Below are positions 278 through 53,141 of a stretch of 64,000 nucleotides of DNA, one piece after another. Source of the DNA: Eledone cirrhosa (Eukaryota); NCBI GenBank assembly GCA_964016885.1, contig CAXHJY010001229.1, positions 1-64,000 of the forward strand, read 5' to 3'. Both the position numbers and the translations under genes were made by a program. The notes below the pieces were generated by a model. The model ran no database searches. It was given only the letters and a program-made list of their open reading frames with translations, and was not told where the DNA came from. Position 1 is the first letter of the stretch. Each line of letters starts with the position of its first letter.

Positions 278-643
278 TATATGTGTGTATATATAATAGT
301 ATATATGTTTATATATATGTATATATATATATATATATATAATATATATATGTATATATCTTATATATATATATATGTATATATAATATGTATGTATATA
401 TATATATCTTTATATATATATTTCGTTTCTGAATTTGTTTAGCAAGATTCTTTATCTGAAATCGTGTGTGTTGAAACCGATATTGTTATACTTTGGGAGG
501 GTCATGTTGCCAATAAGAAACACACGCACACCAGTTGCTTTCACTTCAATTTAATTTAATATATATTTATAAATTTACAAATTTATAAATTTCTGGTTGG
601 TTGGTTGGTTCCACAACCAGATAGTTGTTTATATATATATTAT

Positions 644-688
644 AGTCATAGTTCTTTCGTCACACACTCTGTGACCTCTTCAGTGACT
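644..688 (-). ncRNA. Minimal type-I hammerhead ribozyme (mirror copy)
   Basis: Exact reverse complement of 775-819 in the left palindrome arm. Confidence 0.8.
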
Positions 689-774
689 GGGGATTTCTTC
701 TATCCTACGCCATTTTTCAAAAATGGCGTAGGATAGAAGAAAGGAAAGGCACAGAAACGAAGAAAGAAATCCCC

Positions 775-819
775 AGTCACTGAAGAGGTCACAGAGTGTG
801 TGACGAAAGAACTATGACT
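775..819 (+). ncRNA. Minimal type-I hammerhead ribozyme
   Basis: AGTCA-CTGAAGA-G-GTCACA(GAGTG)TGTGAC-GAAA-GAAC-TA^-TGACT: stem I AGTCA/TGACT, 6-bp stem II, minimal stem III; predicted cleavage after A814. Confidence 0.8.
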
Positions 820-1079
820 ATATATATATAAACAACTATCTGGTTGTGGAACCAACCAACCAACCAGAAATTTATAAATTTGTAAATTTATAAATATATA
901 TTAAATTAAATTGAAGTGAAAGCAACTGGGTGCGTGTGTTTCTTATTGGCAACATGACCCTCCCAAAGTATAACAATATTTAATATATATATATATATAT
1001 ATAAGTATATATATAATATATATGTATAAGTATATATATATATGTATAAGTATATATATATAAGTATATATAATATATG

Positions 1080-1163: not shown

Positions 1164-1324
1164 GTTTATATATATATATATATATATATATACATGGAAA
1201 GTTATATTTAAATTGTTGGGTTACAACTAGTAAATATTTATAACTGATATAAAAGCACTCAACAAGTATTTGGAGTATATTTACGATATTAAATAAATGG
1301 AAACTATATTTATAAAACCATATT

Positions 1325-1390
1325 TATTTCATTATATATATTTCAGGGATATCATATTAACAATATGCTATGCCTTCCTCAGACAAAATA
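1325..1390 (-). ncRNA. Type-I hammerhead ribozyme in the Penelope pLTR (same sense as the RT)
   Basis: TATTTTGT-CTGAGGA-AGGCATAGCATATT(GTT)AATATGATATCCCT-GAAA-TATATA-TA^-ATGAAATA; palindromic stem III ATATATAT. Confidence 0.8.
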
Positions 1391-2706
1391 CAATATAGAC
1401 AGTTTTATAGATAAATAGATTTGACATACCGTTCAACATCGACTTGTATTTGAAAAGTTGATTTGGCAGTGAAAAAATTGTAAGCAGAAAGAAAAAAGAG
1501 AGAAAGAAGGAAAGAAAGAAAAGAAAGAAAGAAAACGAAGAAAAAGAAGAAAAAGAAGAAATGCATGTAACAAAATAGAGAGATGGAAAGATAGATAAAG
1601 AGAAGAACTTCATGTAAAGAAACAGAGATAGATATATATAGAGAGAGGAAATAGATAGAGATAGATATATATAGAGAAAAGTGGGTAGTTGTACATCCGT
1701 TGAATAAACGTATCAATGATACATTTATTTATTTATTTATTTATTTAGCTCTAGTATTAATGTAAGGGAGATATATATAGAGAGAAAAAATATAGAGAGA
1801 GAAAAAAATTTAAATAACCAGATATAGGCGAGGCGTAAAAAAACCCTATGTTTTAATGTAGAAGTATTAGTATGTATAAAAACCAGGCACTATAATGCAA
1901 ATATCAGTATTCCTGAATGAGACACGTATCCATAATGTGTGAAAAGTAATGATCTTATGTCTAGTTTTAAAAATTCATATGTTTATATGATAACTACAAA
2001 CATCGATGTGAATTTACGTGAACAACTCTGCAAATCCTAATTTTCCATGGAGAACATTCTCATTGTGCTATAAAAATTTAAGTATACATATATGCGTATA
2101 TATATACACATATATATAGAGTCTATATTAATTTTAACAATACTATTCTTGTCTTTACTCCACATGATTATCAAGCAGAAATAGAGAACAGATTTCAATA
2201 TATTAATAAAAAATATCAGAAACAAAAAAAAAATAATAACAATAATAGTAATAAATAATAATAAAATAGAAAACTAAAAAATATTACGAAAAAATATTAC
2301 ATATTAAAAATAAAAATATTAGAAAATACTACAATAATAAAAATAAACCACAAAGATCAACCCTTCGAAATTAATTGACAATATATTGCCAAGTTCATTA
2401 TAAGCATCAGAGTCGAAAACAGATAAAGCTAAAAATTATTTATCAAATCGCGTCTAGCAAAAAAACATTTCAAAAAGTTTAGGATGCCCATTTGGTCTAC
2501 ATGTGTTCTTATATTTAATATAGAAGTTTATCTAGTGTAACGTTTATTCGAAATATTAGGAGCATCAATTTTTAGGGTAGTTTAATTTTTCATGAAGAAT
2601 GTTTAAATAAAAATAAAAATAAAAATAAAAATAAAAAGAATAAAAAGAAGAAATCGAAAGATTTATCGGCTAGTTTCCCAAATAATTATAAATCAAACTA
2701 AATATA

Positions 2707-4842: not shown

Positions 4843-5190
4843 ATCATCATCATCATCATCATCATCATTTTACGTCCACTTTTCCCTGCTTGCAAGGGTG
4901 GGACGGGAACTGATTCTGGCTTGATTTCTACAGCTGGATGCCCTTCCTAACACCAACCTCATTTACAGTGAGTGCTGGGTGCTTTTTTGCCGTGGCACCT
5001 ACACGACCACTTTGCAGTGGAATGATATGGACCCCAGTCTCTATCATCTCATTTCTACAGCTGAGTAAACTGGAGCAATGTGAAATAAAGTGTCTTGCTC
5101 AAGGAAACAACACATCACCTGGTCTGAGAATTGAACTCATAACCTTTCGATTGCAAGACCAATGCTCTAACCACTAAGCCATGTGCCTCC
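4843..5190 (-). mobile_element. tRNA-derived SINE family A (RTE-type 3' tail, (GAT)n end)
   Basis: A box TGGCTTAGTGG, B box GAGTTCAATTC, core ccttgagcaagacacttt, tail ggttggtgttaggaagggcatccagc...(gat)n. Confidence 0.85.
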
Positions 5191-5199
5191 ATATTTGTA

Positions 5200-6275: not shown

Positions 6276-6562
6276 ATATATGTTTATATATATATATATA
6301 TGTGTTTATATACATATATGTTTATATATATATATGCGTTTATATATATATACACATATGTTTATATATATGTTTATATATATATATATATATATATATG
6401 TGTTTATATATATATACATATGTTTATATATATATGTTTATATATATATATATATATGTTTATATATATGTGTTTATATATATATACATATGTTTATATA
6501 TATATGTTTATATATATATATATATATATATGTTTATATGGATATATATATATGTTTATAAT

Positions 6563-6901
6563 GGAGGCACATGGCTTAGTGGTTAGAGCATTGGCCTTGC
6601 AATCGAAAGGTTGTGAGTTCAATTCTCAGACCGAGTAATGTGTTGTTTCCTTGAGCAAGACACTTTATTTCACATTGCTCCAGTTTACTCAGCTGTAGAA
6701 ATGAGATGATAGGGACTGGGGTCCCTATCATTCCACTGCAAAGTGGTCGTGGAGGTGTCACGGTAAAAAAGCACCCAGCACTCACTGTAAATGAGGTTGG
6801 TGTTAGGAAGGTCCTCCAGCTGTAGAAATCAAGCCAGAATCAGTTCTCGTCCCACCCTTGCAAGCAGGGTAAAGCGGACGTAAAATGATGATGATGATGA
6901 T
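6563..6901 (+). mobile_element. SINE family A
   Basis: Near-identical inverted copy of 4843-5190. Confidence 0.85.
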
Positions 6902-26147: not shown

Positions 26148-26702
<555 letters not shown>

Positions 26703-28296
26703 TTACTAAAATTATAAATTATTTCATTACTAACTTAATTAACCCTTTAACAATATATACTATTGTATTTTTGTGGTAAAGGCTTTATCTTGCATAATTA
26801 TCTCACATAATATTGAATCTATGAGATTTTTATATTTATTTTGGGAACTATACTTAAATGGTAGTATGATGGGCTAGTTATGGTCATCGAATCTATGACA
26901 TTTGAATATTACCTTAACATAAGTATGAGTGGCCGGTTTGAACAGAAAGAAGTGAGAGAATTCTGGCTGGATACAGCCGGTTTAAATGCTAAAGGATTAC
27001 CATATGGTTCTTATATAGAATGATGCTGAAAAATGATAATTTAACCCTTTCAATACTGTAACGAGATACACTGACTTGAATTAATTAAAACTTTGGTGGT
27101 ATTTACTAAAATTATTAATTATTTCATTATTAAGATGGTACTTGTAACAACAAAAAGTTTTTATATCAAATTATGTTGCAAAAACATTTAACTACGAATG
27201 CTTTAAAATGGGTGGTTTTGTTTCAATCAGAACCAAAGAAAGTTTTGGCTGGGTTTACTATCAAAAGGTGCTTACATAAATTTTCGATAAATATAAAGAC
27301 TTTATAAGCAAACAGCTTTTTATTGATGCTAGAATTTTTTTCAACACGCTGAATCGTATGAGAATATAAATATAAACGCGCAAACACGCACTTACAAAAA
27401 TAAACACTCAGACACATTCACACCAACACAGCAAATGGAACGCCAGCTGCTGTTTGCTCTATTTGCTAGCCTTTTCACTACCCCTTACTTTCCTTTTACA
27501 CATACATACTTTAACACAAACACACACATTGTGTGACGGATGGAAGCCACTCAAACTTATATATAGATTGTAAAACCAGGGACAGTTTGGCATAAGAAAG
27601 TTTAACTATACAATTCCCTTAGCAAAGAACTATTGATTGAAGTGTGGATATAAAATAAAAAGTAGTCTGGCTGTTCATTATAAAGGAGAAGGAATTATAG
27701 CATGTGTTTACCATATGGTGAATACAAGAGATAATGCCTAGCTGCTGCAATAGATCAAGGACATGTGGCCAGAAAAGTGAAAAGAAAAAGCATATACTAA
27801 GCCAACACATGCCACATCAGAGGTCTCTCATTTAACCATATCAATAACTTTATAATTTTTCTTGTGATATGGACATGGGATGTATATAGAGGATGACAGT
27901 TGTATCAAAAAGGTGTAGAAATTAAGAAAGAGGAAGAAGACCTAGGAAAGATTGGGATGAAGTGATAAACACTGACCTTGCCCAATTAAACCTAACAAAG
28001 AAGATGATACATGATCAAGATCTTTGGAGTTATGCTGTGTTGCAAAAGACCTGCCTTCCCAAGTGGTCAGGTTGAATCAAACATAAATAAGACGCTAGTC
28101 TGCACCTATCTTCTCCCTAACCCTCTCCTATTCACACTCCCCAGTTTTAATACCCCAACACCTACTACTGTCCAACCCATTCATACAAGCATGGAAATCC
28201 ACATCTGATCCTACAGAATGGTGCTGTTACAACAAAAGTTCAAAGGTGGTCGTACCAGTGACAAGAGGCTTCCAGTCCATCCTCTGAGAGAAAAAG

Positions 28297-28328
<32 letters not shown>

Positions 28329-28387
28329 CCTACTCCACCCTCTAAGGATTACACGAAAAAGCACCAAGTCTATCCTGTTTGATGCTA

Positions 28388-28422
<35 letters not shown>

Positions 28423-28767
28423 AGTCCATTGTGGTTGGTGTTAGGAAGCGAATCCAGTCATAGAAACAAAGCCAAAATACAAATCTGTATGAGTAAAACA
28501 TGGTCTCTTGACCTAACTCGATTCAACATGACAAGTCCAAGCTTAGAAAAATAGACGTTAAACCATATATACACACACATATATGCGATAAAAAAAACAC
28601 ACCCAGTACACACTGTAAATGTGGTTGGCATTAGGAAGGGCATCCAGTCATAGAAACTAAGCCAGAAATAGTTCTGTATGAGCAAGACAGTCATCTGACC
28701 TGGCTTGACTCAATGAAAACTCGTCTAACCCATGCTAGCATAGAAAAATATATGTTAAATGGTGATA

Positions 28768-29219
28768 TCTATATATATAAAATCAAGTCTCTGTGTGTGT
28801 GTGTGTGTGTCTGTGTACAAATACTAGGCTCCTTTTAACTTTTGAAGTACTAGGCCGATTTGCTTCAAGGAATGATATTTCTATGTCCAGTGGATGGTCA
28901 ACGTGGTAGTGCCAGCACCATCTTACGCATAGGGTTTAGTCTACTGAAGGACATACGGTGCGTCTATTCCATCTTTATCCCCTTACTCATACCTACTACA
29001 GCAAGGCCGGACCTGAAATCATTCACGTCAATTAACTCAAGCTACCCCATGAATTGTTTTTATGTTGCCGTTTATTTCACTCAATCATGTCACTGTACAC
29101 CCATTTTGTTAAACTTTTTTTTACAATTACATTTCAATTCTTTGCTCAACCTTTGGCTCTCTTTATACAGACAAACAGGCTGTCATTCATTTCCCGAGCA
29201 ACGCCGGGTACATCTGCTA

Positions 29220-29220
<1 letters not shown>
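28768..29220 (+). mobile_element. Non-autonomous Helitron
   Basis: A|TC start, subterminal hairpin CCCG-AGCAACGC-CGGG, CTAG|T end, no TSD. Confidence 0.8.
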
Positions 29221-29264
<44 letters not shown>

Positions 29265-29555
29265 AAGACAGAACATCAAAAATGAGTCGATCTCTATAAA
29301 AATATGTTGTATTGCTTAAGAAATGTATTATATAATAAAAGTGGTACCTAAGTGGCTATCTGAAGTTATGTTATGGCAGCATTGCATAAATTAAAAATAA
29401 CACCACAGAAATAAGTATTACAGAAAATTATGCAATAAAATGAGTTATGTAAATTTAGCCTTCATTATTGTACATATACTATTATGTGCTACCACATCAG
29501 ATTGGAAGAATACATTTGACGTGAGTGCTTAACCCCAATTACACCATCAGTGAAC

Positions 29556-29805
29556 ATTTAATGATTAATAAAAATAATGATGATACGATTAAGGAAAATC
29601 CTATTTTTATTCTAAAAGATCGTGTAATTTGGATATTAATAATTTGATTAAGAATTATAATTAATGAATATTTTCTTGAAGGATAAATTCAAAGAGATGA
29701 ATTAATAAAAAAGAGAGATCAAATTGATAAAATTCAAGTTAGGGAATGGAGATATATGGTTGTTGAATTATGATCATCAAATGAAGAAAAAATATCTACT
29801 GTCAT
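29556..29805 (-). pseudogene. atp6: Nuclear copy of mitochondrial atp6 5' part
   Basis: MTVDIFSSFDDHNSTTMYLHSLTWILSIWSLFFINSSLWIYP...GFSLIVSSLFLLII. Confidence 0.9.
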
Positions 29806-29807
29806 TA

Positions 29808-29968
29808 TTATCAATTTTATATATATATATATATTTTATTTTTTTTTTATTGTTATTTGAGGAATAAATATTATTATTATTTCATCATATAATAAATGAG
29901 TTTAAGAATATAATTATTCAGAATATAGAAAATAAAAGGATTCAATTTAATGGTGATAATTGAGGCAT
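29808..29968 (-). pseudogene. atp8: Nuclear copy of mitochondrial atp8
   Basis: MPQLSPLNWILLFSMFWMIMFLNSFIMWWNNNN...; 3' part altered by A/TA runs. Confidence 0.9.
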
Positions 29969-29969
29969 G

Positions 29970-30039
29970 AAAAAAGTACTAGGTTTTATAATAATTTAAA
30001 TTTGACAAATTTATGTTATTTTAATTTAACTAACTTTTT
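29970..30039 (-). tRNA. trnD: Mitochondrial tRNA-Asp (GUC) copy within the NUMT, presumably non-functional
   Basis: Anticodon arm taaat-TTGTCAA-attta, located between cox2 and atp8. Confidence 0.8.
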
Positions 30040-30045
30040 AATTGA

Positions 30046-30174
30046 TTAATTAATTATATTATATAATCAGTTATTAAATGTATTTATATTTACAATTTCA
30101 AGGGTAATTGGTATAAAAGAGTGATTTGCTCCGCAGATTTCTGAGCATTGACCATAAAAAATTCCAGGACGACT
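30046..30174 (-). pseudogene. cox2: Nuclear copy of mitochondrial cox2 3' end
   Basis: [42 protein letters not shown] (CuA ligands); inverted copy [25 protein letters not shown] at 30161-30263 (+). Confidence 0.93.
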
Positions 30175-30263
30175 TAATCAAGTAAATTTATATTCAAGTC
30201 GTCCTGGAATTTTCTATGGTCAATGCTCAGAAATCTACGGACCAAATCACTCTTTTATACCAA

Positions 30264-32190
30264 GTCACACAGAATGGGGTTGTTCCGAAGGACTGGCATA
30301 GCAGCATCATCATTAACTGCTACAAGGGTAAAGGAGATGCCCTTGATAGGGGTAACTATAGAGGCATTAAATTAATGGACCAGGTCATGAAGGTCACAGA
30401 AAAAGTAATAGCGCAACTAATCAGAGAGCAAATTGATCTAGATGAAATGCAGTTCGGGTTTGTGTCAGGTAAAAGTACCACAGACGCTCTTTTCATTGTA
30501 CGATAACTACAGGAGAAGTACCTAGCTAAAAGTAAACCCCTATACTTAGCGCTTTTGTCGACTTGGAGAAAGACTTTGACAGAGTCCCCCGTTCCATTAT
30601 CTGGTGGGCTCTTAGAAAACTAGGTGTTGATGAATGGCTTGTGAGAGCTATACAAGCCATGTATAAAGAAACAGTCAGCAAGGTTAGAATTAACAACGAA
30701 TATAGTGAAGAGTTTAGCGTAAAAGTTGGTGTTCATCAGGGCTCTGTTCTTAGCCCCCTACTATTTATTATTGCCTTTCAGGCTATAACAGTGGAGTTCA
30801 AGACCGGCTGCCCATGGGAACTCTTATACGCAGATGATCTAACGCTCATAGATGAATCAATGGCCGAACTAGAGAAGAAATTCCAAACATGGAAGCATGG
30901 CCTAGAATCAAAAGGCCTTAAAATTAACCTGTCTAAGACTAAAGTTCTAGTTTGTAGGAAGGAAAATAGGGCACTGGTCCCATCTGGGAAATGGCCATGC
31001 TCAGTGTGTAGGAAAGTAGTAGGTAGAAACTCCATTTTATGTCCCAAATGCAAAGTATGGGTGCATAAAAGATGTAGTGGGATCACAGGTAAGCTAAGTA
31101 AGAACATAGATTTTACGTGGCCAGTGCTCTGGTGCAATAAGTAGCAGTAAGTGCCCACAGAATACTAGCTCATTCCATTGCACAGATGGTTCTATAGAAA
31201 TAGTGGACAGCTTCCGTTACCTGGGCGATAAAATCAGCAGTGGGGGAGGGTGCTCTGAAAGTACAGTAGCTAGAGTCAGAACTGGATGGAAAAAGTTCTG
31301 AGAGCTTATACCACTATTAGCCGCTAAGGGGTTCTCCCTAAAAATGAAAGGCAGGCTGTATGATGCCTGCATACGAACAGCAATCTTACATGGCAGTGAG
31401 ACCTGGGCATTGTGTACAGAGGATATACGCAGACTGGAGAGGAACGAAGCTTGCATGCTCCGCTGGATGTGTAATAGTAATATACGTGAACGGCAAAACA
31501 TAAACGAACTAAGGGAAAAATTAGAAATAAGAGGGATCAGATGTTGTTTACTCGAGAGAAGACTACGTTGGTACGGTCACGTGATGCGCATGAAAGACGA
31601 CAGCTGTATAAAAAAGTGCAGGGCAATAAAAATAGACGGTAGCCACGGAGTAGGCAGACCCAGAAAAACCCGGGACGACTTGATAAATTCCGACCTCACA
31701 CACTTACACCTCTCCAAGACAATGTCACTGGACCGAGACCTTTGGCGCTACACAGTAATACAGAAGACACGTCTTACCTAAGTACAAAGTGAAACCTACT
31801 ACAGTCAGTAGGCATCTCTAACAAAAATACACCCCCCTCCCACTACCCCCACCCCATCCACACCACCCCTTTCAATGTAAAGTTATGTTGGTACCACAAC
31901 ATCCAGTCCGAAACAAATGAGGTCGTGTAGGTGTCACACCAAAAAAACACACAGTCCACGCTGTAATGTGGCCGTGTAGGTAACACGGTAAAAACCTCCC
32001 AGTCCACACTAAACGTGGTTGGCGTTAGGAAGGGCATCCAGCCGTAGAAAACCCGCCAGACAGTTCTATACGAGCAAGACAACCACTTTTGCCTCGAAAA
32101 CTCCCGTCCAAACCCATGCAAGTGTGGAATATGGACGTTAAACGATGATGATGATGGATGATGGATGATGGATGATGATGATGATGATGA
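30264..32190 (+). mobile_element. 5'-truncated RTE-clade LINE (RT with Cys/His finger) including 3' UTR and (GAT)n tail
   Basis: PKDW..KGKGDALDRGNYRGI, QFGF, STTDA, FDRVPR, GVHQGSVLSPLLF, LYADDL, HGSETW, RRLRWYGHVMR; contains stops and frameshifts. Confidence 0.92.
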
Positions 32191-32488
32191 CATACATATA
32201 TGCATATATCTGTATATATAACATACCTGGACCGCCACTTGGAAATTACTGAATATCCAAGTGAGGTTTCTGTAAATCCGAAATCAACAAAATCCGCTTG
32301 TGGTGTATACAAGTTAGATTTCTGGAAGATCGAACAGAGGAATTTACTTTCTCAACAGGCTTTCGTTCTAACCCAAAACCCGGTGTGTAGCACGTTACTC
32401 CAAAGGGAGTTAACGCCGGTTTCTGGAGGTCAATTCAAAAATTATGGGCAATGGAAAAAATTCCATACACAATATATATATATATATA

Positions 32489-32825
32489 GCACATGGCTTA
32501 GTGGTTAGAGCATTGGCCTTGCAATTGAAAGGTTGTGAGTTCAATTCTCAGACCGGGTAATGTGTTGTTTCCTTGAGCAAGACACTTTATTTCACATTGC
32601 TCCAGTTTACTCAGCTGTAGAAATGAGATGATAGGGACTGGGGTCTCTATCATTCCACTGCAAAGTGGTCGTGGAGGTGTCACGGCAAAAAAGCACCCAC
32701 CACTCACTGTAAATGAAGTTGGTGTTAGGAAGGGCATCCAGCTGTAGAAATCAAGCCAGAATCAGTTCCCGTCCCACCCTTGCAAGCAGGGAAAAGCGGA
32801 CGTAAAATGAAATGATGATGATGAT
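32489..32825 (+). mobile_element. SINE family A
   Basis: Full copy. Confidence 0.85.
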
Positions 32826-32839
32826 ATATTTTGCAGGTA

Positions 32840-33470
32840 AAATTACTGAGAGATCCATGGACGAGTTCTCTCCAGCGGTCTCTGTCCATCATCGCTGTTA
32901 TGTCCTGTGTCTCCCAGAGACCAGTGTCTGTCTTTAGGCATCAACATGCCATCTTCAGTCTCCTTCTTCCAGTGTGTCCGTGTAGGGGCTCCCACAGGAC
33001 CAGTGAGTGCAGTGTCAATTCTGAATGTCAGTAAGCATGTCCAGCTAACCTCAGTCTCCTCCAAGTCACTTTCAAGCTGACTTCTGGGAGGCTCCCGTAC
33101 AGCTCTGAGTTCTTCATTCTCAGTGTATACTGATTAATGTTCAGAGCCTTCCTCAGCATTCTCGTGTAGCACCCATCCACCAACTGTGTGAGTCTCTTGG
33201 TCAGTGTCCAAGTCTCAGACCTGTACAGCAGCACAGACTCCACTGTAGTGACAAAGGGACAGATCTTCAGGTCTTTACGAAGGTCTGACTTCCACACTGA
33301 ACTCTTCCTCTTCACATCGTCCTGTGTTTTGAATCTTTGCTCCCAGATACAGGAAGTGCTTAAACAACTCTAGCGGCTTCCCGCCTACATTCATAATCTT
33401 CTCTGACTTCTTAATGTTCTTACCAGACAATTTGTCTTACTCTCATTCATTTTCAGCCCCACAATGTCTC
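32840..33470 (-). mobile_element. LINE (RTE/L2-like) 3' fragment
   Basis: LLYRSETWTLTK..LVDGCYTRMLRKALNI..RRLRLAGH. Confidence 0.75.
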
Positions 33471-33616
33471 CACCTCCTGCATCAATTCCTCTGCCTCCTT
33501 CACTAATTATTATAACATAAAATACATAACTAAAAATAATTTTAAGTTTTTGAGTAAGGGTTTTTTTTTTATACCCAAGTTTATGACAGTTTATGACAGA
33601 AAACATATTTGAAATA

Positions 33617-33935
33617 CAGTTGTCTCCTGGTATTTGTGGGGGTTAGGTTCCTAGAGCACCCACAAAGAGTGATAAACTGCAAATATTGGACGTGGTCCAT
33701 AAAAATGCCTATAAACATCAAAACATAACTTAAAATATAGGCTGGAAAATATGGTATATTGTTATTAATAATTTAGCATTAAAAAGCGTGAAAAAAAAAT
33801 ATATTGCCATGAAAAAAATTGTGGAAGATATTTACAATTCCATGAATATGCAATGGTTTCCACGAACAATTATTAGTTAGGTTCCGAGGAAAATTCTGCG
33901 TCTAACTGAGACCGCGAATGCCGGAGAGGGGGCTG
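33617..33935. mobile_element. Tigger-like MITE
   Basis: TA|CAGTTGTCTCCTGGTATTTGTGGGG and a complementary degenerate right end CCGCGAATGCCGGAGAGGGGGCTG. Confidence 0.5.
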
Positions 33936-35599
33936 CGCGCGGCACACCGTATATATTTATATTTTATTGCATGATAGTCATATTGCTGGTATGTTGACAT
34001 TCGTTTATAGTTAAATTTTTAAATACAAAAAAAAACGCTCGATTAGTTTCAGTCGATCTCGTTATAACGAATTTTTCATTACAACGGAGTGTAACTGTAT
34101 ATCTATATGCATACATACTTAAGCCAGCTGTCGGACAGAATACTCTCACCTGTTTCTGTTCAAACCGGTCTAAATTGCTACGCAATTAAGGTATTGTTCT
34201 CAAAATATATATCAAAATCTCAGATTTGATATTATGTAAGATAAAGCCTTTACCATGCAAATACAATAGTATGTATAGAGTAGTGTAAATGCTAAAGGGT
34301 TAAGGAAACAGTGTAGATGCGAGGTTAGTGAGTAAAAGAGGAGGTAGGAACTCTATAAAAATGTGTACTCAAGTTGTAGTGGGATTGTAGTCAGGTTATC
34401 ATAAAAGATTTTGCATGAGGCAAATGCACAGTATAATAAACCTTTTCCAATCACAGAAAGGACCCAATTGAAGTAGTCAATGATTTGTTAGGTGATCTAA
34501 TTAACAGTCAAGGAGATTGCTCTGAAAACATAGTAGCACTACTATAGGGACTACTATGTTGACAACAAAGGGAATTTCCATCTAGGTGAAAAGTAGATTG
34601 CATAATGCCTGCATGAGAAGTTCGATATTGCATGGTAGTAAGAAATAGGTGGTAATTGAAGTGATTGAAGAGAAATGAATCTAGCATGCTCTGCTTGGAT
34701 GTGTTATGCGAGTGCATGAAACGAGATATGGATGAACTAGGTACAAGAGGAAGGGAGAAGACTACACTAATTTGGAAATGTGATGTGTATGGATGATAAA
34801 TGCAGAGAGAAAAATTACCAGCAAATAACAGTGGAAGGAAGCTGCATTTCAAGAAGACCAAGGAAAACTTGCGCAGATGTGGTAAGAGCTAATCTCAATA
34901 AACTGAACCTCAGATAACAAAGGAATGCTACAAGTGATGTGTGACTGTGATGGAAAGGACTTGCCCAACCTATGCAAGCATGTTTAAGTAGTCGTAAAAT
35001 GATGAATGGAAAAATACATTGATATCAGTAAAGGAAAGATAAGATTCTAACTGGCTGCGCTCAAAGCGTCCTTGACCCAGTTGACTGTGGGTTTTTCCAT
35101 TTTTAGGATATCAATTACCAGTTAATGTCACAATTACCGGACACGCCTGCACACCTGCAGTCAGACTATAGTTATGCTGTCTGCAAGCTCATTCAAATGC
35201 ATTCACACTGGCTGTCTCAAAGACATACAAATATGGCTTATAAAACTTACTAAAGTAAAGAGCCTTCCAGCCTTAGTTCTTTCCAGTTATACAAAGTAAA
35301 AGTAAAATGCAATGCTGTGATTAGATTAGGTGAAACACCTTGCTTCAGCAACACTTAGTTGTAAATTAGATCAAGTAGGTAAGAGTGTCAAAGAAACCTC
35401 AAACATGAGTGGTAAGCATTTTAATTTACCATGGATCATTTTCAGTCTTTGCTAATAAGTTTCAATTACAAACCTGCTACATAAATTCTATTCTTACAAT
35501 ATTTCTAGTGAAAGAATTTAGAGGTATTTAGTAATATAAAGATTCTCACTAAGCTGATGTTTAGAATATAATTTACCTGAATAAAACGTTTTTAGGTAA

Positions 35600-35975
35600 A
35601 TATACACAACGTGACCTCTGGCGTCACGCAGTAATACAGAGTACCCGACCTCCCATGGGTACAAGCCGAAGCATATAGACAATATGCCCCCACCCCCTCC
35701 CACTGTAAAGTGGTCGTGGAGGTGCCATGACAAAAAAAGCACCCAGCCCACACTGTAAAGTGGACGTGTAGGTGCCACGGAAAAAAAAGCACCCAGCACT
35801 CACTGTAAATGAGGTTGGTGTTAGGAAGGGCATCCAGCTGCAGAAATCAAGCCAAAATCAGTTCCTGTATGATCAAGACAAGGTCAGCCGACCAGGCACT
35901 GCCCACAAAAGGACAACCTGTCTAACCCATGCTAGCGTGGAAGAACGGACCTAAAACGTTGATGATGATGATGAT
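35600..35975 (+). mobile_element. RTE 3' UTR/tail fragment (shared with SINE A)
   Basis: Matches the reverse complement of 50432-50790. Confidence 0.75.
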
Positions 35976-36561
35976 ACATTTTAAGACAAACTTTTATATC
36001 ATAAAAACAAGGGCAATTTTAGGTGATTTAGTATCAAATGAGTTAACCCTTTAACATTTACATTACTCTATATATACTATTGTATTTTCGCAGTAAATGC
36101 TTTCTCACATAATTATCTCAGTAATATTGAATCTGAGATTTTGAGAACAATATCTTAAAGTTGGTATGAGTGAACGGTTACGGCCAGTTTGAATAGTAAT
36201 GGGTGAGAGAATTCTGGCCGGATATAGTTGGTTTAAATGCTAAAGGGCGAAGTATTCAAGTATATTGTAAGAGACTTGACAACTTTACAGTGTAAGGGTG
36301 GTGTGATCAGATGTGGATGCATATTAGAAACATGGGAGGTGTATGGAAGGGGAGGATAGTGGTTAAGAGGTGTCTACTAGATGTATGTATGTTTCAGTCC
36401 ATGCGGATGGGAAGGCGGGTTTTCTGTATTACTGCATAATGCCAAATATCTCAATCCGGTGGCATTGTCTTTGAGAGGTGCAATTGTGCAAGGTCAGCTT
36501 TTATAACCTCCTGCTCCATAGCTTCCATCAACTTTGATCACCCTATGTGCGTGTGTATATA

Positions 36562-36607
<46 letters not shown>

Positions 36608-36664
36608 GCTTTTTGTCTAATTATTGATGGCACTGTCCACTAATATATATATATATATATTAAA

Positions 36665-38650
36665 TCATCATTTAACGTCTATCTTCCACGCAAGCATAGG
36701 TTAGACGGGTTTTGTCCCACTTGAGGAAAGATTGGTAGGGTGACCTAGTCTCGTTCATATAGGACTATCGGTTGGTTTTCTACAGCTGGATGCCGTTCCT
36801 AACACCAACCACATTTACAGTGTGGACTGGGAGACTTTTTACCGTGTTACCTACACAACCTCTTTAGTGTAGACTGGATATTTTGTAGTACCAACATAAC
36901 TTTACAGAGAAAGGATGGAGTAGGGGTAATTGGTTGGAGTGTATATTTGGTTTAAGAAGTGCCTACTGAGTGTAGGCAAAGCGGGTCTTCTGTATTACTG
37001 TGTAGCGCCAAAGGTCTCGATCCAGTGACATTGTCTTAGAGAGGTATAAAAGTGTGCAAGGTCAGATTTTATCAGATCGTTTCAGGTTTTTCTGGGTCTA
37101 CCTACTCCGTAGCTTCCATCAATTTTGATCACCCTGCACTTTTTTATACAGCGGTCGTCTTTCATGCGCATACCAGCGTAATCTCCTCAAGTAAACAGCA
37201 TCTGATCCCTCTTATTCCTAATTTCTCACTTAGTTCGTATATATTACTATTACACAACCAATGCTTCAAATCTGCGCAAGTCCTCTGCACACAATACCTA
37301 TGTCTAACTGCCATGTAACATTGCTGTTTGTATACAAACATCATACAATCTGCCTTTCATTTTTAGAGAGAAACCTTTTGTGGCCAACAGCAGTATTGGC
37401 TCTCTGAACTTTTTCCATCCCGTTCTAACTCTGGCTAGTGTACTTTCAGAGCCTCCACCACTGCTGATTTTGTCACCCAGGTAAAGAAAGAGAGCATCTG
37501 TGGTACTTTTAGCTGGCACAAACCCAAACTGCATTTCATCTATATCAATTCGGTCTCTAGTCAGTTGAGTAATAACTCTTTCTGTGACCTTCATGACCTG
37601 GTCAACTAACTGAATGCCTCTATAGTTTCCCCTATCTAGAGCATCTCCTTTACCATTGTAGCTGTTAACAATGATGCTGCTACGCCAGTCATTTGGTATG
37701 GCCCCCATTCTGTATTACTTGGTTTACTATCCAGGTGACCATAGTATGTCCCACCATTCCAGATGCTTTCAACATCTCAGCAACTATCACCGAAGGCCAA
37801 GCTGCCTTGCCTGTCTTCATATCTTTGCCTTATACGACCATTTACTTGCACACCCTTTACTGGATCGATTTGGGGCAGACTATCTTTATCTCATTTATTC
37901 TCCTCATTTAGTAGTCTCTTGAAGTGACACTTCCAAGCTACCTTCTTATCAGTATCAGTGAAGGCAAGTACACCATCATCATTACGGACATACTTCTCGA
38001 CAATATCAGTTTTCCTTGACACATTGTCTTGCAATCCTGAACACCTCACGTTTTTGGTCCTCGCATTGTAGAACATGCTCAAACTTTCTAGCCTCTGCTT
38101 CCCTTCTTGCAAAGTATACTTGTCACCTAGCTTCTCTCCTAGCCACCTGATAATGTTTTCTACTCCCCACATCCCGCCATTCTTTCCAAGCTTGTTCTTT
38201 GGCCTTGATTGTCTCCACCACCTTACTCTCCTGCCTAAACGTCCGCTCCCGACACAGATTTCTTCTGTTGAATTCAGCAGGTTAACTTTCAGGAATTCCC
38301 ACTGTTCCTCTATATTGTACGTCTTTAATTGCTCTTCCTTACTGTCAAGAGCATCAAGTTTATAGCATCATTTTTTACCCACAATGAATTTAGCAGACCC
38401 ACCCTACCACCTAGTCTCTTGTACACAACAAACATCAACTTCCTTACGTTCAAGCATCTCTACAACATCATTTGAGCGACTTTTCAATGTGTCTATGTTC
38501 ACGGTACCAACTCTGAAGTTTTGGGTTTGGTTGAGTCGGCGGAAGGGATGGGGGCGCAGTAAGGGGTGTGGGAGATGTAGATGTTGGTCTTCCATGTCTG
38601 AAATAAAGAGGAGTGTTTGCATTCTCGTCCGGCAGCAGCAGGTGAATTTA
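36665..38650 (-). mobile_element. Internally deleted RTE LINE (AP endonuclease start, RT pieces, tail)
   Basis: FRVGTVNIDTLK..VDVCCVQETRW; VAWKCHFKRLLNEEN; PNDWRSSII..QFGF; 3' tail at 36665-36900. Confidence 0.85.
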
Positions 38651-38795
38651 TCTATCTTCGTCATTGAGTGCTCAGACTCTCTAAAGTCCATTTAGCATAC
38701 TGAAAAACAACCAGGTCTAAACTTAAGGAGTAGTAGCCGAAGCTATATATATATATTTCTGGCAATATTATAACAATATGACCCTCTGCAAGTAT

Positions 38796-38834
<39 letters not shown>

Positions 38835-39169
38835 TGCAGGCATAGTTGTGTAGTTAATGATTTCAGGTTTAACCCTACTATACCCTCAGGCTAACCAATG
38901 TCTTGTGCACGTAATTTGGTAAACAGAAATTGTGTAGAAGTGTATATGTGTGTGTCTCATAATGAGACTTGGGCCATGAAGACACAAATGGCAAGAAATG
39001 GGACAAACATGCTTTAGATTTGTAATGTTAGTGTGCATGAATGGTGGAGTGCAAATAGGCTGCAAAAGAAAATGGGTGTAAGGGAAATCAAATGTAGTAT
39101 ACAAATGAGATGACTGTGATGGTATGGACATGTGATATGCATACAGGATGTTAATTGTAGTGTTGAACC

Positions 39170-40560
39170 CTTCTTCACCCACTTATTCCTGAGAGGGTCA
39201 TGAGAACAGAGTCTTCAAACACTTCTTTCAACAGATCCGGCCGTCTCCAACTGCTCCGGCTAGATCCCCAAGCAAGACCAACCATACTTATCATCATCAT
39301 TGTTTAACGTCTATCTTCCACGCTAGCATGGGTTAGACGGGATTGTCCCACTTGAGGCAAGATTGGTCAGGCGACCATGTCTCGCCCATATAGAACTGTA
39401 TCTGGCAGGTTATCTACAACTGGATGCCATTCCTAACACCAACCACATTTACAGTGTGGACTGGGAGCCTTTTTACCATGTCTCCTACATGGCCACTTTA
39501 CAGTGTGGACTGGGTGTTCTGTGGTACCAACATAACCTCAGAGAAGGGTTGGTGTGGGTGGAAGTGGGAGGATTGAATAGGGGTAGTGGAGTGGGGTGTA
39601 TATTTGGTTAAGAGGTACCTACTGACTGTAGGTTTTGAACTTCGAACGTGGGGGGGGGGGGGGGCCCTGGGTGTCCTGCCAGTTGGTTTTGCCAGCAATA
39701 TTTTCATGAGACATTCTAACCACATGCCCATACTATCGGAGCTGTGATCTCTCAATTTGGAGAAGTAGCGGCTCTACCTGGAGCGACTCACTGATCTCTG
39801 AGCTATGGACTCTATTCAGTCACGTCAGCACAAATACCCGTGTATCCGTGATCATATTCTTTCACTCATTACCCAAAGGGTTGGCACATATCCCGAATTG
39901 AAGAAGGCGAGTTTGGCTTTTTTTTTTTACCAAATGCTGAAGCTGGTGTATTACTGCATCAGGACCTACAATTCTTGCACTTAATTCACCCTCCTGTTTT
40001 CCATCACTCATGAACACAGCGCCGAGGTACTTCACCTGCTTCTGTGGAACTCAATTCACATGTAGAGCATATTGCGCAAAATTCCTTAAGAGTACGAGTG
40101 TCTCAGTTTTTACAGTACTGATTTTCATTCCAGCCATGCAGCACTCGGCATCAAACCTATCAAGTGCAAATTGGAAATCAAGTTAAGTAACACCATGTCG
40201 TCTGCAAAATCTAATCGACTGATCTTACACCTGCCACTCATGATACTACTTCAAACCAACTGCTCAAGTCAATCCTGTTCATGAAAGGCATATAAGCAAT
40301 GACAATCAGGAGTGATAAGCCCAATTTTCAAAAAGGTTAACAAGAGAGATTTTTCGAATTACAGAAGGATCTCCTTGTTAAGCCTTCCCGGTAAAGTCTA
40401 TGCTAAGTGTCTGGCAAAGAGATACAGAAAGATTGTCGTGTCCACGTTAACTGATGGAGACAGTGTGGTTTTGCCCTGGACACAGCACAGCAGACCAAAT
40501 ATTCACACTGCAGCAAGTCAAGAATGCATAGAAATATTGCCAAGGGGTGTATTCTTGTTT
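39170..40560. mobile_element. Second RTE family: minus-strand 3' part (interrupted by an RTE tail at 39290-39635) joined to a plus-strand upstream RT piece
   Basis: Plus strand 40300-40560 ISPIFKK..NYRRISLLSLPGKVYAK; minus strand FADD/VKYLG region; relative at 51190-51700 (+). Confidence 0.65.
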
Positions 40561-41049
40561 TGTGTTGAGCCTATAAAGTAGAAAATTATTGGAGCCCTCT
40601 AACCCTACCTCCTATGAAATACAACCTTGTAGGAAGCCAGTTAAATCTACATAGGTGTTACGTCATAATTTTTTTTTGCATTTTGAATGTAGAACAGAAA
40701 GACATGGGAACAAAGTAATGAAGACAGATTTCAACCTAATGTTGGAGACATAAGGATTAAGATGTATGCAGAAAATCCATTCATCATTTCAAGCAGGGTA
40801 CCCAACATGCTCCTAATAATACCCATTCCCACTGCCATTATTATACCACCACTCCTGGTGGACTATATATCACTCCCTTTCGATTTCGTAGGTAGAAAAC
40901 ATCCAAAATATTAAACACATGAGCAAGATGTGGTTATCCAACCTGTCTTGTCTAATCCATGCCATCATAGGAAAGAACATAAAATGACAAAGATGGAACT
41001 TAAGAATCAAGACGTAGAAAGCAAAACATCCATACTGTAATACTTATAG

Positions 41050-41605
41050 GGCGGTGGATTGGCAGTATCGGTAGAGGTTCGGACGCCATGCTTTCCAGCA
41101 TAGTTACGTCCCTTTACGATCTGAGTTCAAATCCCGCCGAGGTTGACTTTGCCTTTCATCCTTACGGGGTCGATAAAATAAAGTACCAGTAATACACTGA
41201 TATAATTGCTGGCCATGTGCCTCCTAAAGTAGAAACAATTATATACAGTATTTCCCGCCGCCGAAGACGCTTCGTCCCAGGACGCACCCTAATTTTGACA
41301 ACCAAAAATTTGAAAAAAAAATAAACCTACGGCCTCCAGGATGCATGGTAGATTTTTTTAGGAAAGAAGTAGCGTTTTCGACGCCGGGAATTAGAGCGAT
41401 GGATTGGCAGTATCGGTAGAGCCTTGGACATGCTTTATGGCACAGAATTACGTCTCTTTACGATCCGAGTTCAATTCGAGATTAGCTTAGCCTTTCATTC
41501 TTAGGGATCGATAAAATAAAGTACCAGTAATGCACTGGGGTCGATATAATTGATCCCCGCCCCCTCAAAAAATTGCTGGCCTTGCGCCTATAGTAGAAAC
41601 CATTA
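41050..41605 (+). mobile_element. Two SINE family B copies separated by a MITE
   Basis: ggcggtggattggcagtatcggtagag...gagttcaaatcccgccgagg...cctttcatcc...tagaaacaattat. Confidence 0.8.
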
Positions 41606-42604
41606 TAGTACATTAATGTTCTCTTTGTTGAGTGTCTTACTTTACTTTCCTCTATCTCTAGAAGAAAAAGTTATACATCTCACATCTATTCAGGTTTAGT
41701 TAGCCTCCTTACGAGGTTATTTTCATGGGTTTCTCTAGCGTTTTTAATTATAGGGACTCAAGTCAATATGAAAGGAAGCGTCTTGCTCAAGAACACAACG
41801 TGCCACCCAGTCCAGGAATTGAACACTTAACCACTAGGCCACGCGCCATCAGTCTCAGCTTTCATATCAAATTTAAAGACATTTTCGAAAACACTATCAG
41901 TGAATTGTTTTCAAATTCTTGTTTATAAGTATAATTTGGACACTTCATTTTTTAATGGATTCATGACAACATATAAGTACAACCGGCTCAGATCTATCAA
42001 TCCTATTATTTATTTATTTATTTCTCAGCCAATTTCATGTTTTTTTCCTACTTTGCCTTTAAATGTTCTCCAGAGATAGCGACCAGTTCCATTCATCAGA
42101 ACATCCCATTGTTTTTCATACATGCCCTTTCATCCCCCTTTTCACCACTGAGGAGATGAAGTAACGCGACGAGTGAAAGACGCTGTGCTGAAAAGGAACC
42201 ATCCAATTCATGCAAGTACGTAAAAACGATGATGACGATGTTCGATGAACGTAAATTTTATCTTCAATCAAATGCCTCGTCGATAACGAATACATATTAT
42301 CCATGACTACTGGAAAGTAATGTCATCTCTAGAGTCAGGCATTTCGTAAGGTGACGACAGTATGAGAAACGATCCAAACAGGATTTTTTTTTTATCCATA
42401 AATATACATTTGAATTTGAGATGAATTTTCAACTTTGCAAAAAATGTATACTGAACACTACATTTTAAAAGCATGTATATTACGAAAGAAACTGAGAAAA
42501 TGTAGCTGTATCCACGTTAAACTTATTCATTTCGTTAATTCAAGAGTCACATTTTTTTATACATACATCACTGTCGTGTGTGTATATGTATAGATATAAA
42601 TATA

Positions 42605-42678
42605 CACAGTGTCCCAAAAATGTATACAAACTTCAACAGCATTCTAGTATATGTGTATACATATTTGGGGACACCCTG
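42605..42678. mobile_element. 74-bp Tc1/mariner-type mini-MITE
   Basis: TA-flanked; TIRs GTGTCCCAAAAATGTATACA / TGTATACATATTTGGGGACACCCTG. Confidence 0.6.
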
Positions 42679-43186
42679 TATATACTATATATATACACAC
42701 ATAAATATATACATATACACACATATATATACATATACACACATATATATACATATACACACATATATATATATACATATACACACTAATCTTTTACTTG
42801 TTTCAGTTATTAAATTGCTATCACGCTGGGGCATCATCTTAAAAGCTATTTAGTTGATCCTAGTAATTATTTTTTCAAACCTAGAATGTATCGATCATAT
42901 ATGGTGAGCGTCTGGAGTTTTCGTCTACGAAATTTGAGTCACAAGGCATTGATCAACCAGAGGTTAAAGAAGATACTTGCCCAAGGTAGCGCCTAGTGGG
43001 GCTGAACACAAAACCACGTGGTTGCAAAGCGAACTCATCCGTCTACCAAATTCCACTTATTGGTGAATCCAAATATATATATAACCAAAGATTAGTATGG
43101 TTCGTTGATTACTCAACAGAAAAGTTTTCCTGGAGTTTTTAATATTATTCAAAATGTTAAATGAAAAATATTCTCATAATCAAAAT

Positions 43187-43255
43187 ATATACTTTATTAT
43201 ATATATTTCAAAGGTAGTGTAAATTTTTCAGTACGTCCTCATCAGACAAATATAT
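43187..43255 (-). ncRNA. Type-I hammerhead motif (mirror copy, sense to PRPS pre-mRNA)
   Basis: Same core; stem II has one extra mismatch (CACTAC vs CAGTAC). Confidence 0.55.
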
Positions 43256-43351
43256 CATTTGATATATAGGATACTGCTACGGTCTTGATTATTCAATTCC
43301 AGTATTGGAATTGAATTATCAAGACCGTAGCGGTATGTCATATATCAAATC

Positions 43352-43422
43352 ATATATTTGTCTGATGAGGACGTACTGAAAAAACAATACAGTACCTTTG
43401 AAATATATATAATAAAGTATAT
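43352..43422 (+). ncRNA. Type-I hammerhead ribozyme motif
   Basis: ATATATTTGT-CTGATGA-GGACGTACTG(loop)CAGTACCTTT-GAAA-TATATA-TA^-ATAAA. Confidence 0.65.
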
Positions 43423-44364
43423 ATTTTGATTGTGAGAATATTTTTCATTTGTTAACATTTTGAATAATATATGTTCATATAAATATATAGTAAATGACTT
43501 TTGCCCAAGGTGGCATGCAGTCAGATCGAACCCGAAACCACGTGGCTGCGAAGAGATTTTTTTAAAAAGAAAAAAAAATTTTTCAAATATTTTTATAAAC
43601 GAAAAAAAATAATAATCATCTCCAAACTGTCCTGTAATTCACCACATGCTACAATGTACCAATGTGACAAGGACGTCTACAATATATATAGTTCCATCTC
43701 ATCTGAAAACGCTGGTCGTATTTAGGCCAATAATGCAAAAATAAAATTTTATATAAATATTCTAATTCTGTGTTTATTACTTTTTCTTCTTTCGTTTGTA
43801 CGTGTGTATATATAAAATTGTGCACGTCTTCACTAGCCCCCACCCCACACCTAATTCATGTTTGTTTTGTAAGTATTCATTATATAAATATGAAATAAAT
43901 ATTACATTTTAATACATTCTTCTGGTTGTATAATATAAGTAGATAGTTATTATTATTATTATTGTAAACCAGGATGCATCACACGTTTGGTCATGGGGCG
44001 CGAGTACTGCGTGTGAAGAATATTTTAGCAGCGAGTACTGCGTGTGAAGAATATTTTAGCATAAGTCTTTGCGTAGGATGCAAGGTAAAAATAAAAATAT
44101 TCGGTAACGCAGCATGTGTTATAGCGTCAAAGGCACCGCCACTTCATCATCATAAAAAATACTAAAGATTATATCAGCGCGGATAGCATCAAGTTGCAAA
44201 CCTATTATCAAATTGAAATTATGATGGGAATGTGTAGAAATTGAAATATGATCTGAAAAGCTTGTGATAACCAACGAGACGAGAAGACGAACAGAACACA
44301 AAAATGAAAATATATTAATAAAACTAAGCACATGCGGGAATAAACAATACACACATACTATTAT

Positions 44365-44414
<50 letters not shown>

Positions 44415-45165
44415 GTTTGGATTTGATAACACGAGGTAAAAACCCCGAGTAGTAATATAATAAAAACACACATATATATCAGAGATATTAGATATTGTCA
44501 AAAAAAAAAATATCTAACAGTTAATAAATCGATTACGATTAAAGTAATCGCAAATCGATTTTTTTTTCACTAAACTGATAATATATACCAAATTTTCTTT
44601 TCTAGATCTTCATTTAAACGCAAATAGAAGATATATCCCAATCCATTATACAGTTAGCTGCACGTGCGTGCGTGTTAAAATACACGTGCGTGTATTTTAA
44701 ACATACATAATTAAATTTAGATTATATTTATACTATGCATAAACAAATTCAAATATATATTTATATATAGATACACGAGTAGCTCTTTGAAATACTGTGC
44801 ATAGAACGTTCAAACATTAACTGAATGAGCACTCAATACGTGTGAGGAGAGTACACAATTTATTATCTGAAAAAAAAGTGGCATTGACTTCCAAGTTTCA
44901 GCGATTCTTCTTCGGATATTTATAAGAGTTGTTGAAACTTCGAAGTCGCTGGCACCTTTTTCTTCGGATAACAAATTGCGTTTATATATATTAGTGAGAA
45001 ACAGGCGAAACTCCACAACAAGATTCACTATTTAACCTTAATAAAATAAATATATATATATAACATTGGTAATATTGCATCCACGTGTCGCTGAAAACAA
45101 AAAGCGAAAAAGATGATTATATATACACACACGCACATAAATATAACAAGATAACGATTACATAC

Positions 45166-45350
45166 CAGGTTTCTCCATTACTGAATTTCGTTGTGACAAC
45201 CTTTCCCTTATCAATACCCAGTCGGTCACAGACTTTTCTGGTAAGATCGGAATGGGAAGTTCCGCTGAAGACTTTGATATTTGGCATGTTGCGAATTTCG
45301 GAACCACTGCTGGATGATTTCCTGTCCTTTAGCTTAGACGTGCCCGGCAT
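45166..45350 (-). CDS. PRPS1: Ribose-phosphate pyrophosphokinase, coding exon 1 (upstream ATG 45350; conserved [12 protein letters not shown] at 45287)
   Basis: Translates [61 protein letters not shown]; ends TG|GTATGT (phase 2 donor); 122 nt from the second ATG. The symbol is a family label; PRPS1 vs PRPS2 orthology cannot be resolved for an invertebrate. Confidence 0.93.
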
Positions 45351-48009: not shown

Positions 48010-50148
<2,139 letters not shown>

Positions 50149-52571: not shown

Positions 52572-53141
52572 ATTAGGTAGTAATAAGTGCTTACACCGTA
52601 TTTGACTAGATAGAATTAGTTTGTTGGGATTTAAAAATGGAATAAAGAATGAGTATTGACGTACATGGGACATGAACACACATCTTTGGTTTGTCGGACC
52701 AATGTCTTACCATTACACCAACACACCATGCTTCCTTATATTCAATTAGAAGCTATATAACCATAACAGGTATATATATATAAATAGGGAGACACAAAAG
52801 GTTTGTTTAGAAACAGCTAGTGAATTTGAAAATTAGGTAGTACCATGTGGTCACACCGTATTTGACTAAATAGAATTAGTCTGTTGGTTGGGATTTAAAA
52901 AACCCCTCTGAATGGAAAAAAGGATGAATATTGACGTACATGGGACATGAACCTAGATCATTGGTTTGCCGGACCAATGTGTTACCATTACACCTTTTTT
53001 CCATTCAGAGGGTTTTTTAAATCCCAACCAATAGACTAATTCTATTTAGTTACATACGGCGTAAGCACATGTTACTACCTAATTTTCAAATTCGATAGCT
53101 GTTTCTCAACAATGCCTGCTTTGTGTCTCCCTATTTATATA
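52572..53141. repeat. Direct plus inverted repeat cluster containing tRNA-like units
   Basis: 52572-52719 resembles 52832-52994 (direct); 52778-52922 is inverted at 52993-53141; minus strand GGTGTAATGGTAA..CATTGGT-CCG(G/A)CAA-ACCAA..GTTCATGTCC. Confidence 0.7.

Follow-up and report, generated by a model that had tools for sequence, protein, structure and literature searches.

A ribozyme-bearing palindrome in a PRPS intron of Eledone cirrhosa as a probable head-to-head insertion of a Penelope-like element

Introduction

The first intron of the PRPS gene in Eledone cirrhosa contains a palindrome in which each arm carries a hammerhead ribozyme core. The locus raises the question of how such a structure came to lie in an intron, and whether its ribozyme has significance for the host transcript. 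A first-pass annotation had suggested that the hairpin may mask self-cleavage of the PRPS pre-mRNA. The analysis presented here covers a 64,000 nt stretch of DNA, termed the window (positions 1–64,000 of contig CAXHJY010001229.1, assembly GCA_964016885.1), and the 3.0 Gb genome that was searched. The best explanation, which is held to be very probable, is that the palindrome consists of two pseudo-LTRs (pLTRs) in head-to-head arrangement, belonging to a Penelope-like element (PLE) of the Hydra clade and located in a TA run of the PRPS intron. It is likely the product of one insertion event and likely functionless for the host.

The PRPS gene and the palindrome

PRPS is encoded on the minus strand, where the Pfam domain Pribosyltran_N is matched on two exons. 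The first coding exon ends at position 45166 and the next exon begins at 26550. Therefore the palindrome is located 1.7 kb inside intron 1 and its antisense arm is transcribed ahead of the sense ribozyme, as the first-pass annotation had proposed. An in-frame ATG is found 21 codons upstream of the MPNIKVF start (45117–45350, minus strand) and may represent a short N-terminal extension of PRPS. A second PRPS allele was sought, however the assembly gave a single match to exon 1 and thus no empty site was found. The features of the locus are as follows.

45166..45350, minus strand: first coding exon of PRPS, matched by Pribosyltran_N (E 4.6e-7)
26551..45165, minus strand: PRPS intron of 18.6 kb that follows the first coding exon and contains the PLE insertion
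43079..43472, no strand assigned: whole insertion, a head-to-head PLE pLTR pair in a short (TA)n run, with no discernible TSD; outer junctions covered by short-read contigs
43079..43141, minus strand: left-arm "tail", the long 3′ end, which is usually ~105 nt in length; 35 nt have been lost here between 6-nt direct repeats (about 43111–43116)
43142..43301, minus strand: left arm, pLTR in sense orientation with the PRPS pre-mRNA; 16 columns differ from the family majority
43193..43250, minus strand: type I hammerhead, sense in the pre-mRNA; core 43245–43239, GAAA 43209–43206, stem III palindromic, cut predicted at 43198/43197, G>C change in stem II at 43217
43302..43308, no strand assigned: junction, a 4-nt loop plus 3-nt microhomology, 4–11 nt downstream from where the RNA is inferred to start; the identical 18-mer is found 30 times in the genome
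43306..43470, plus strand: right arm, a pLTR that has the short 3′ end and departs from the family majority at 5 columns
43357..43416, plus strand: type I hammerhead, antisense in the pre-mRNA; core 43362–43368, GAAA 43400–43403, predicted cut 43411/43412

The two arms (43142–43301 and 43306–43470) match at 150 of 165 aligned columns and are separated by a 4-nt loop at 43302–43305, in agreement with the ~160-bp arms, 4-nt loop and single core per arm described from the letters alone. Each arm displays the core CUGAUGA ... GAAA-UAUAUA-UA, with C3 at 43362 on the plus strand and at 43245 on the minus strand, and the ribozymes face outward from the centre as had been stated. Cleavage is predicted at 43411/43412 (plus) and 43198/43197 (minus); for the sense copy the recomputed position is the one given earlier. 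The weakened stem II of the sense copy was likewise found, and consists of the G>C change at 43217 together with a shortened loop. The extent had been put at 43141..43470. The palindrome stands, but the left boundary does not, as the left arm is ~60 nt longer and reaches to about 43079. The additional stretch is the tail of the element, shortened by a 35-nt deletion between short direct repeats.

The distance between the arms at the PRPS locus is 0.096, compared with a median of 0.048 in 64 pairs. Provided that the variants are genuine, this locus predates most others of the same type, which is what the divergence of the arms had been taken to mean, and the PRPS-intron copy appears from its sequence to be decaying. 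Private columns number 12 in the left arm vs 2 in the other, or about 7 vs 2 when counted as events. This lopsided divergence was considered as a mutational signature and dropped; it is largely composed of multi-base indels counted per column and shows no A-to-G excess. Across pairs, a bias in divergence was not clearly tied to the long arm (21 vs 10 pairs) or to strand (24 vs 17).

Family and clade membership

The arm is a dispersed repeat. There are 1,657 candidates genome-wide, the best of which are 96–98% identical, and an exact 20-mer of the core has 1,568 genomic copies (control, 0). In longer copies an open reading frame (ORF) lies upstream, beyond ~1 kb of AT-rich sequence. In copies that bear the PRPS-locus pLTR or the pLTR of a sister subfamily, the ORF displays the motifs RWR, SDKTN, YRDD, CxCx5C, VYKC..YIG, CxxC and CxH; the copy of the element in the window is itself without the ORF. 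These motifs match the definition of the Hydra clade (PMC8557442, section 11). The C-terminal EN+ PLEs of that clade, which include Hydra-1_Obim of Octopus bimaculoides and Penelope-13_HM, have the same RWK-like, DKT, CxCX5C, CxxC and CxH motifs, the last two lying around the conserved E and N (Craig et al. 2021, PMC8557442), and the counterparts found here are RVRW, SDKTN, a CNCRxxxxC linker, CNLCNLE and LFxxCHH. The VYKC..YIG motif follows the RT, which gives a C-terminal GIY-YIG. An alignment of 77 sequences shows a GIY-YIG core with no conserved cysteines between the motif halves, i.e. Hydra-type without CCHH. Most 3′ ends adjoin TA runs. The same (TA)n targets, and a type I hammerhead with a palindromic stem III near the 3′ end, are described for the Hydra clade (PMC8557442).

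In a sister family, whose pLTR is 78% alike over part of its length, a frame of 750 aa lies between pLTRs. A structural model of this ORF (pLDDT 83.6) was compared by VIA-align, covering mainly residues 80–452, and three telomerase RTs were top-ranked (Z 17.2, 16.6 and 15.3; rmsd 2.7–4.3 over 259–335 residues). Together with the RT motifs of the linked copies, the model indicates a single ORF with a telomerase-like RT. Atlas neighbour clusters carry GIY-YIG and RVT_1, with GIY-YIG in 26–50% of the members of five clusters. Pfam analysis of six translations (family fragments and the sister ORF) gave no RT or GIY-YIG match, an RVT_1 match was found in only one of ten homologues and was below the cut-off, and PDB sequence searches with the family proteins gave nothing relevant. 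The ORFs at loci L042, L050 and L111 have asparagine-rich, low-confidence inserts in the thumb and linker, as in rotifer Penelope elements.

The pLTR flanks the ORF on both sides at three loci (L111, L150 and L156), and among the regions fetched there was no intact full-length copy of the exact PRPS-locus subfamily. Within the pLTR the hammerhead core and its three helices are present; Rfam models gave no hammerhead at this locus at the gathering score, nor at E up to 10.

The palindrome is thus identified, by sequence comparison, as an inverted pair of pLTRs of a PLE. Membership in the PLEs is firm, and the Hydra-clade assignment is based on motifs. The insertion appears to be a truncated, two-armed representative of a kind that is already known, the family member being new. 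Inverted pLTRs, one-sided tails and opposite-strand hammerhead pairs have been described (PMC8557442, PMC3846280, PMC4209133); Penelope-13_HM in particular has an inverted 5′-truncated copy with a hammerhead on both strands, as here (PMC8557442 supplement), and in Schistosoma hammerhead pairs on opposite strands 100–700 bp apart were noted (PMC4209133). The present family differs from the Hydra-1_Obim entry in its hammerhead sequence, and from the Hydra clade as described (PMC8557442) in that the tail is about 105 nt rather than 30–40 and the AT-rich 3′ region is about 1 kb.

Other identities were considered. Animal non-LTR retrozymes likewise carry a type I hammerhead in short, non-coding repeats that are related to the pLTRs of PLEs, however they form tandem arrays, whereas the PRPS palindrome has two inverted units and tandem pairs are rare in the family (6 vs 75 head-to-head); a retrozyme was thus ruled out. 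A MITE or DNA transposon was also ruled out, as the arms are unequal, variably 5′-truncated, often single, and run into an RT ORF. A 935-aa frame at C28 was discarded, being a PLE fragment fused to another retroelement. At this locus (L110, G000:C28:42778500-42787500) a retroelement of another type is inserted in the (AAT)n stretch of the PLE ORF, which has created the fused frame.

Frequency and architecture of inverted pairs

Architecture was counted in 96 of the first 100 pattern matches, which represent 85 insertions; the sample is from one large contig, was retrieved with an exact pattern and is biased to younger subfamilies. Head-to-head pairs account for 41 of these 85 consecutive insertions; 19 of the pairs have two complete ribozymes, 15 have one and 7 lack any. 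The other 44 insertions are single, and a ribozyme is present in 36 of them. Two-armed copies with two ribozymes constitute 22% of insertions wherever these have landed. When 19/85 is scaled to 1,202 pattern matches, an extrapolation from one contig, the family is estimated to have at least 200 palindromes with two ribozymes, of which the PRPS locus is one. Pairs within 400 nt at all fetched loci number 75 head-to-head, 3 tail-to-tail and 6 tandem. The exact 18-nt junction of the PRPS locus has 30 genomic occurrences (control, 0).

The element has two 3′ ends that are about 105 nt apart, each ending in ATAT beside TA runs. One long and one short end are present in 53 of 58 resolvable pairs, and the window copy is of this type. 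The arrangement of pLTRs with a tail at one end is that of a PLE. In Adineta vaga, Penelope elements have the same head-to-head pLTRs, junction palindromes, one-sided tail and Inr-like TCACT (Arkhipova et al. 2013, PMC3846280).

Formation of the pair

The order of biochemical steps that we infer is as follows. The GIY-YIG endonuclease of the element would cut both strands of a (TA)n target, and each 3′ end would serve as the primer for a reverse transcription that starts at one or other of two sites within the RNA. The template would be capped, sense, uncut RNA that starts at an initiator-like pLTR motif. Both cDNAs would extend to near the cap and then join via 3-nt microhomology. The expected outcome is a pair with outward ribozymes and a 4-nt loop, in which one arm is long and the other short and the hammerhead would be the element's own dimer-type ribozyme.

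Several observations bear on the template. Of 96 arms, 40 begin at −19 to −5 relative to the arm's first base, at the initiator-like TCACT. TA-joined copies with one extra base before the start number 47, of which 25 have G, 15 have A, 4 have C and 3 have T; the element's own base at this position is C in 47 of 49 body-linked copies. At two control start sites G was found in 0/9 (Fisher p 0.003). Another 32 TA-joined copies are without an extra base, so that G represents 25/79 over both patterns. An untemplated G is an accepted mark of a reverse-transcribed cap in L1 and SVA (PMC4859970). The sequences indicate that the template was likely capped sense RNA. It would also have been uncut, because copies with the inferred start span the ribozyme site.

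The relation between arms bears on the number of cDNAs. In 44 long/short pairs, the short arm extends at least 10 nt further 5′ in 19, the opposite is the case in 12, and in 13 the ends are within 10 nt and thus uninformative; in a few rows of this count the alignment end may be misplaced where the junction is palindromic. With the short arm further 5′ and the tail only on the long arm, neither arm can have been copied from the other, and therefore two passes of reverse transcription would be needed. A two-pass picture with two internal starts agrees with in vitro results for PAc, the Poseidon element of Anolis (Frangieh et al. 2024, PMC11167929). PAc shows the same cutting and extension on two strands, two internal RT starts that define the tail, AT-rich targets and an uncut RNA template. 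It belongs to another clade, however, and inverted products or a cap signature are not reported in the parts of that paper covered. The picture is unlike the antisense self-priming inferred for A. vaga (PMC3846280); the data here favour two cDNAs and a capped sense RNA.

An alternative for the same PLE is that the second arm arose when one strand folded back and primed its own copying, or that the palindrome was formed later by repair. The junction forms a mini-hairpin whose stem is 3 nt long; it occurs 30 times, and at the PRPS locus it fits a single fold-back equally with two cDNAs. Rare variants are common to both arms in 29 of 64 pairs, compared with 7% of random pairs, and the PRPS-locus arms have two in common, each present in only 5/189 copies. 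Such sharing is compatible with a single template, a single master copy or gene conversion at a later time. Self-priming itself has been proposed, on an antisense template (Arkhipova et al. 2013, PMC3846280). These points are set against the 19 of 44 pairs in which neither arm contains the other, the identical junction seen with the long arm on either side (L083 and L098 vs L090 and L091), and the G at the 5′ end, which implies a sense, capped template. Fold-back or later repair is thus considered unlikely. The favoured reading, held with somewhat more than even confidence, is that PLE inverted ends are two separate cDNAs, one per target strand, each with its own internal start, that were reverse-transcribed from capped, sense RNA not cut by the ribozyme and then linked head to head. 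In the literature searched, which was mostly open-access, neither a cap signature nor a two-cDNA model was reported for PLEs.

The hammerhead ribozyme

Core columns are 96–99% constant in 189 arms, with the exception of U7 (90%). The closing pairs of stem II are 94–98% paired vs 77–88% in shuffled sequences (211 motifs, 0/500 shuffles; the counts ignore relatedness). These pairs alternate between G-C, G-U and A-U across eight sequence groups with stem I pairing retained, and in stem I two of five pairs are no better than shuffles. The hammerhead helices thus appear to be real at the family level. Minimal hammerheads of metazoan PLEs have the same long helix II, short helix I and palindromic helix III (Cervera and de la Pena 2014, PMC4209133), however they display a highly conserved G10.1-C11.1 and an extra nucleotide after A9, whereas the pair varies here. 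The largest subfamilies have G-U or A-U at 10.1–11.1, unlike the G-C of the Hydra clade (PMC8557442).

Stem III is an 8-nt palindrome with no space for a loop, i.e. of the dimer type. A single PLE minimal hammerhead of the dimer type gave no cleavage, and dimers were cleaved poorly (PMC4209133); the PAc ribozyme of Anolis needed its protein (PMC11167929). For the isolated sense arm the active fold is predicted at −3.9 kcal/mol and the MFE at −17.0 kcal/mol, a gap of 13 kcal/mol. A typical family copy gives −16.6 vs −21.9 kcal/mol. The lone, mutated ribozyme of the PRPS intron is likely too weak to need masking; there would be little to mask because of the dimer-type stem III and the predicted misfolding of the lone arm. 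In the family, 5′ ends showed no excess at the cut site (4/32 observed, 2.6 expected, p 0.26).

A second alternative is that an active ribozyme cuts the PRPS pre-mRNA and is masked by the antisense arm, which would allow two-armed intronic copies to persist, with A-to-I editing as a dial. The antisense arm is indeed transcribed first, and the full hairpin (−212.6 kcal/mol) is predicted to pair the entire core, with an unpaired probability of at most 0.001. The pairing of the helices maintained across sister families, with G-C, G-U or A-U at stem II, suggests that the ribozyme matters to the element, and tandem retrozymes are depleted from Xenopus introns (bioRxiv 10.64898/2026.07.22.740005). 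Burial of the core is thus the part of the masking claim that holds as a prediction. Its role in tolerance is not supported, as the lone copy is predicted to misfold and single, unmasked copies with a ribozyme outnumber two-ribozyme palindromes 36 to 19. Two-armed copies make up the same 22% irrespective of landing site, and the PRPS copy is decaying. The proposal that editing could modulate cleavage is not supported either. With simulated editing of 10, 30 and 50% of paired adenosines, a rough simulation that reads inosine as G, the core was intact in 22, 5 and 1 of 30 cases, respectively, and it was released in 0/90. This second alternative is accordingly regarded as very improbable. The insertion likely lacks a host function and, on this analysis, is most likely neutral.

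Least probable of all, and barely credible, is that misassembly of a small contig produced the palindrome or the divergence of its arms: the window does start at base 1 of its contig (C1256), and the private variants of both arms are absent from short-read contigs, which often drop such variants in repeats, however short-read contigs (probably from the same sample) span both outer junctions with zero differences and the same structure is found on many large contigs.

Other PLE loci and repeats in the window

A second palindrome in the window serves for comparison.

420..979, no strand assigned: head-to-head pLTR pair of an unrelated PLE family, with the long end on the left and the short end on the right

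This pair is young, its arms being 98% alike, and has 56 genomic candidates. The linked ORF of its family contains a GIY-YIG domain with a cysteine-rich linker and is Neptune- or Nematis-like by motif. The first-pass annotation had remarked that the unrelated palindrome at 480–979 has the same architecture, which is correct; the two are alike because each is a PLE inserted in the manner of PLEs. That two unrelated palindromes with ribozymes occur in one window is thereby no longer puzzling.

Additional elements were observed. A single sister-family pLTR with a hammerhead (48217–48365, plus strand, core at 48254) lies about 2.9 kb upstream of the PRPS start and has a TA-run end. Another single pLTR (1190–1435, minus strand, hammerhead core at 1382) has a long tail and belongs to another sister family, which has head-to-head copies in fetched loci such as L145, L100 and L128. 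A hammerhead-like core at 42148–42191 (plus strand) is unmatched in other fetched loci and is probably due to chance. Inverted repeats of 341 bp (4852–5192 and 6561–6901) are 96% complementary and 1,368 nt apart around a TA microsatellite; a tRNA-like match at 5124–5181 is within the repeat, which is possibly an inverted SINE pair. A further tRNA-like match at 52657–52727 (minus strand; Rfam 34.7 bits) is probably a SINE head.

Significance

As a single locus the PRPS palindrome is ordinary and matters little. Intronic hammerheads of cephalopods are not reported in the literature searched, which was mostly open-access. Hairpins of this kind are ready-made long intronic dsRNA and so are plausible ADAR substrates. 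The evidence for two cDNAs bears on a question left open for A. vaga (PMC3846280), i.e. whether the template is sense or antisense and how head-to-head repeats originate, and the untemplated-G and arm-containment tests are cheap to repeat in any genome. If the two-cDNA route is true, it would replace the proposal of antisense self-priming and would provide a genomic sign that the hammerhead does not process the template.
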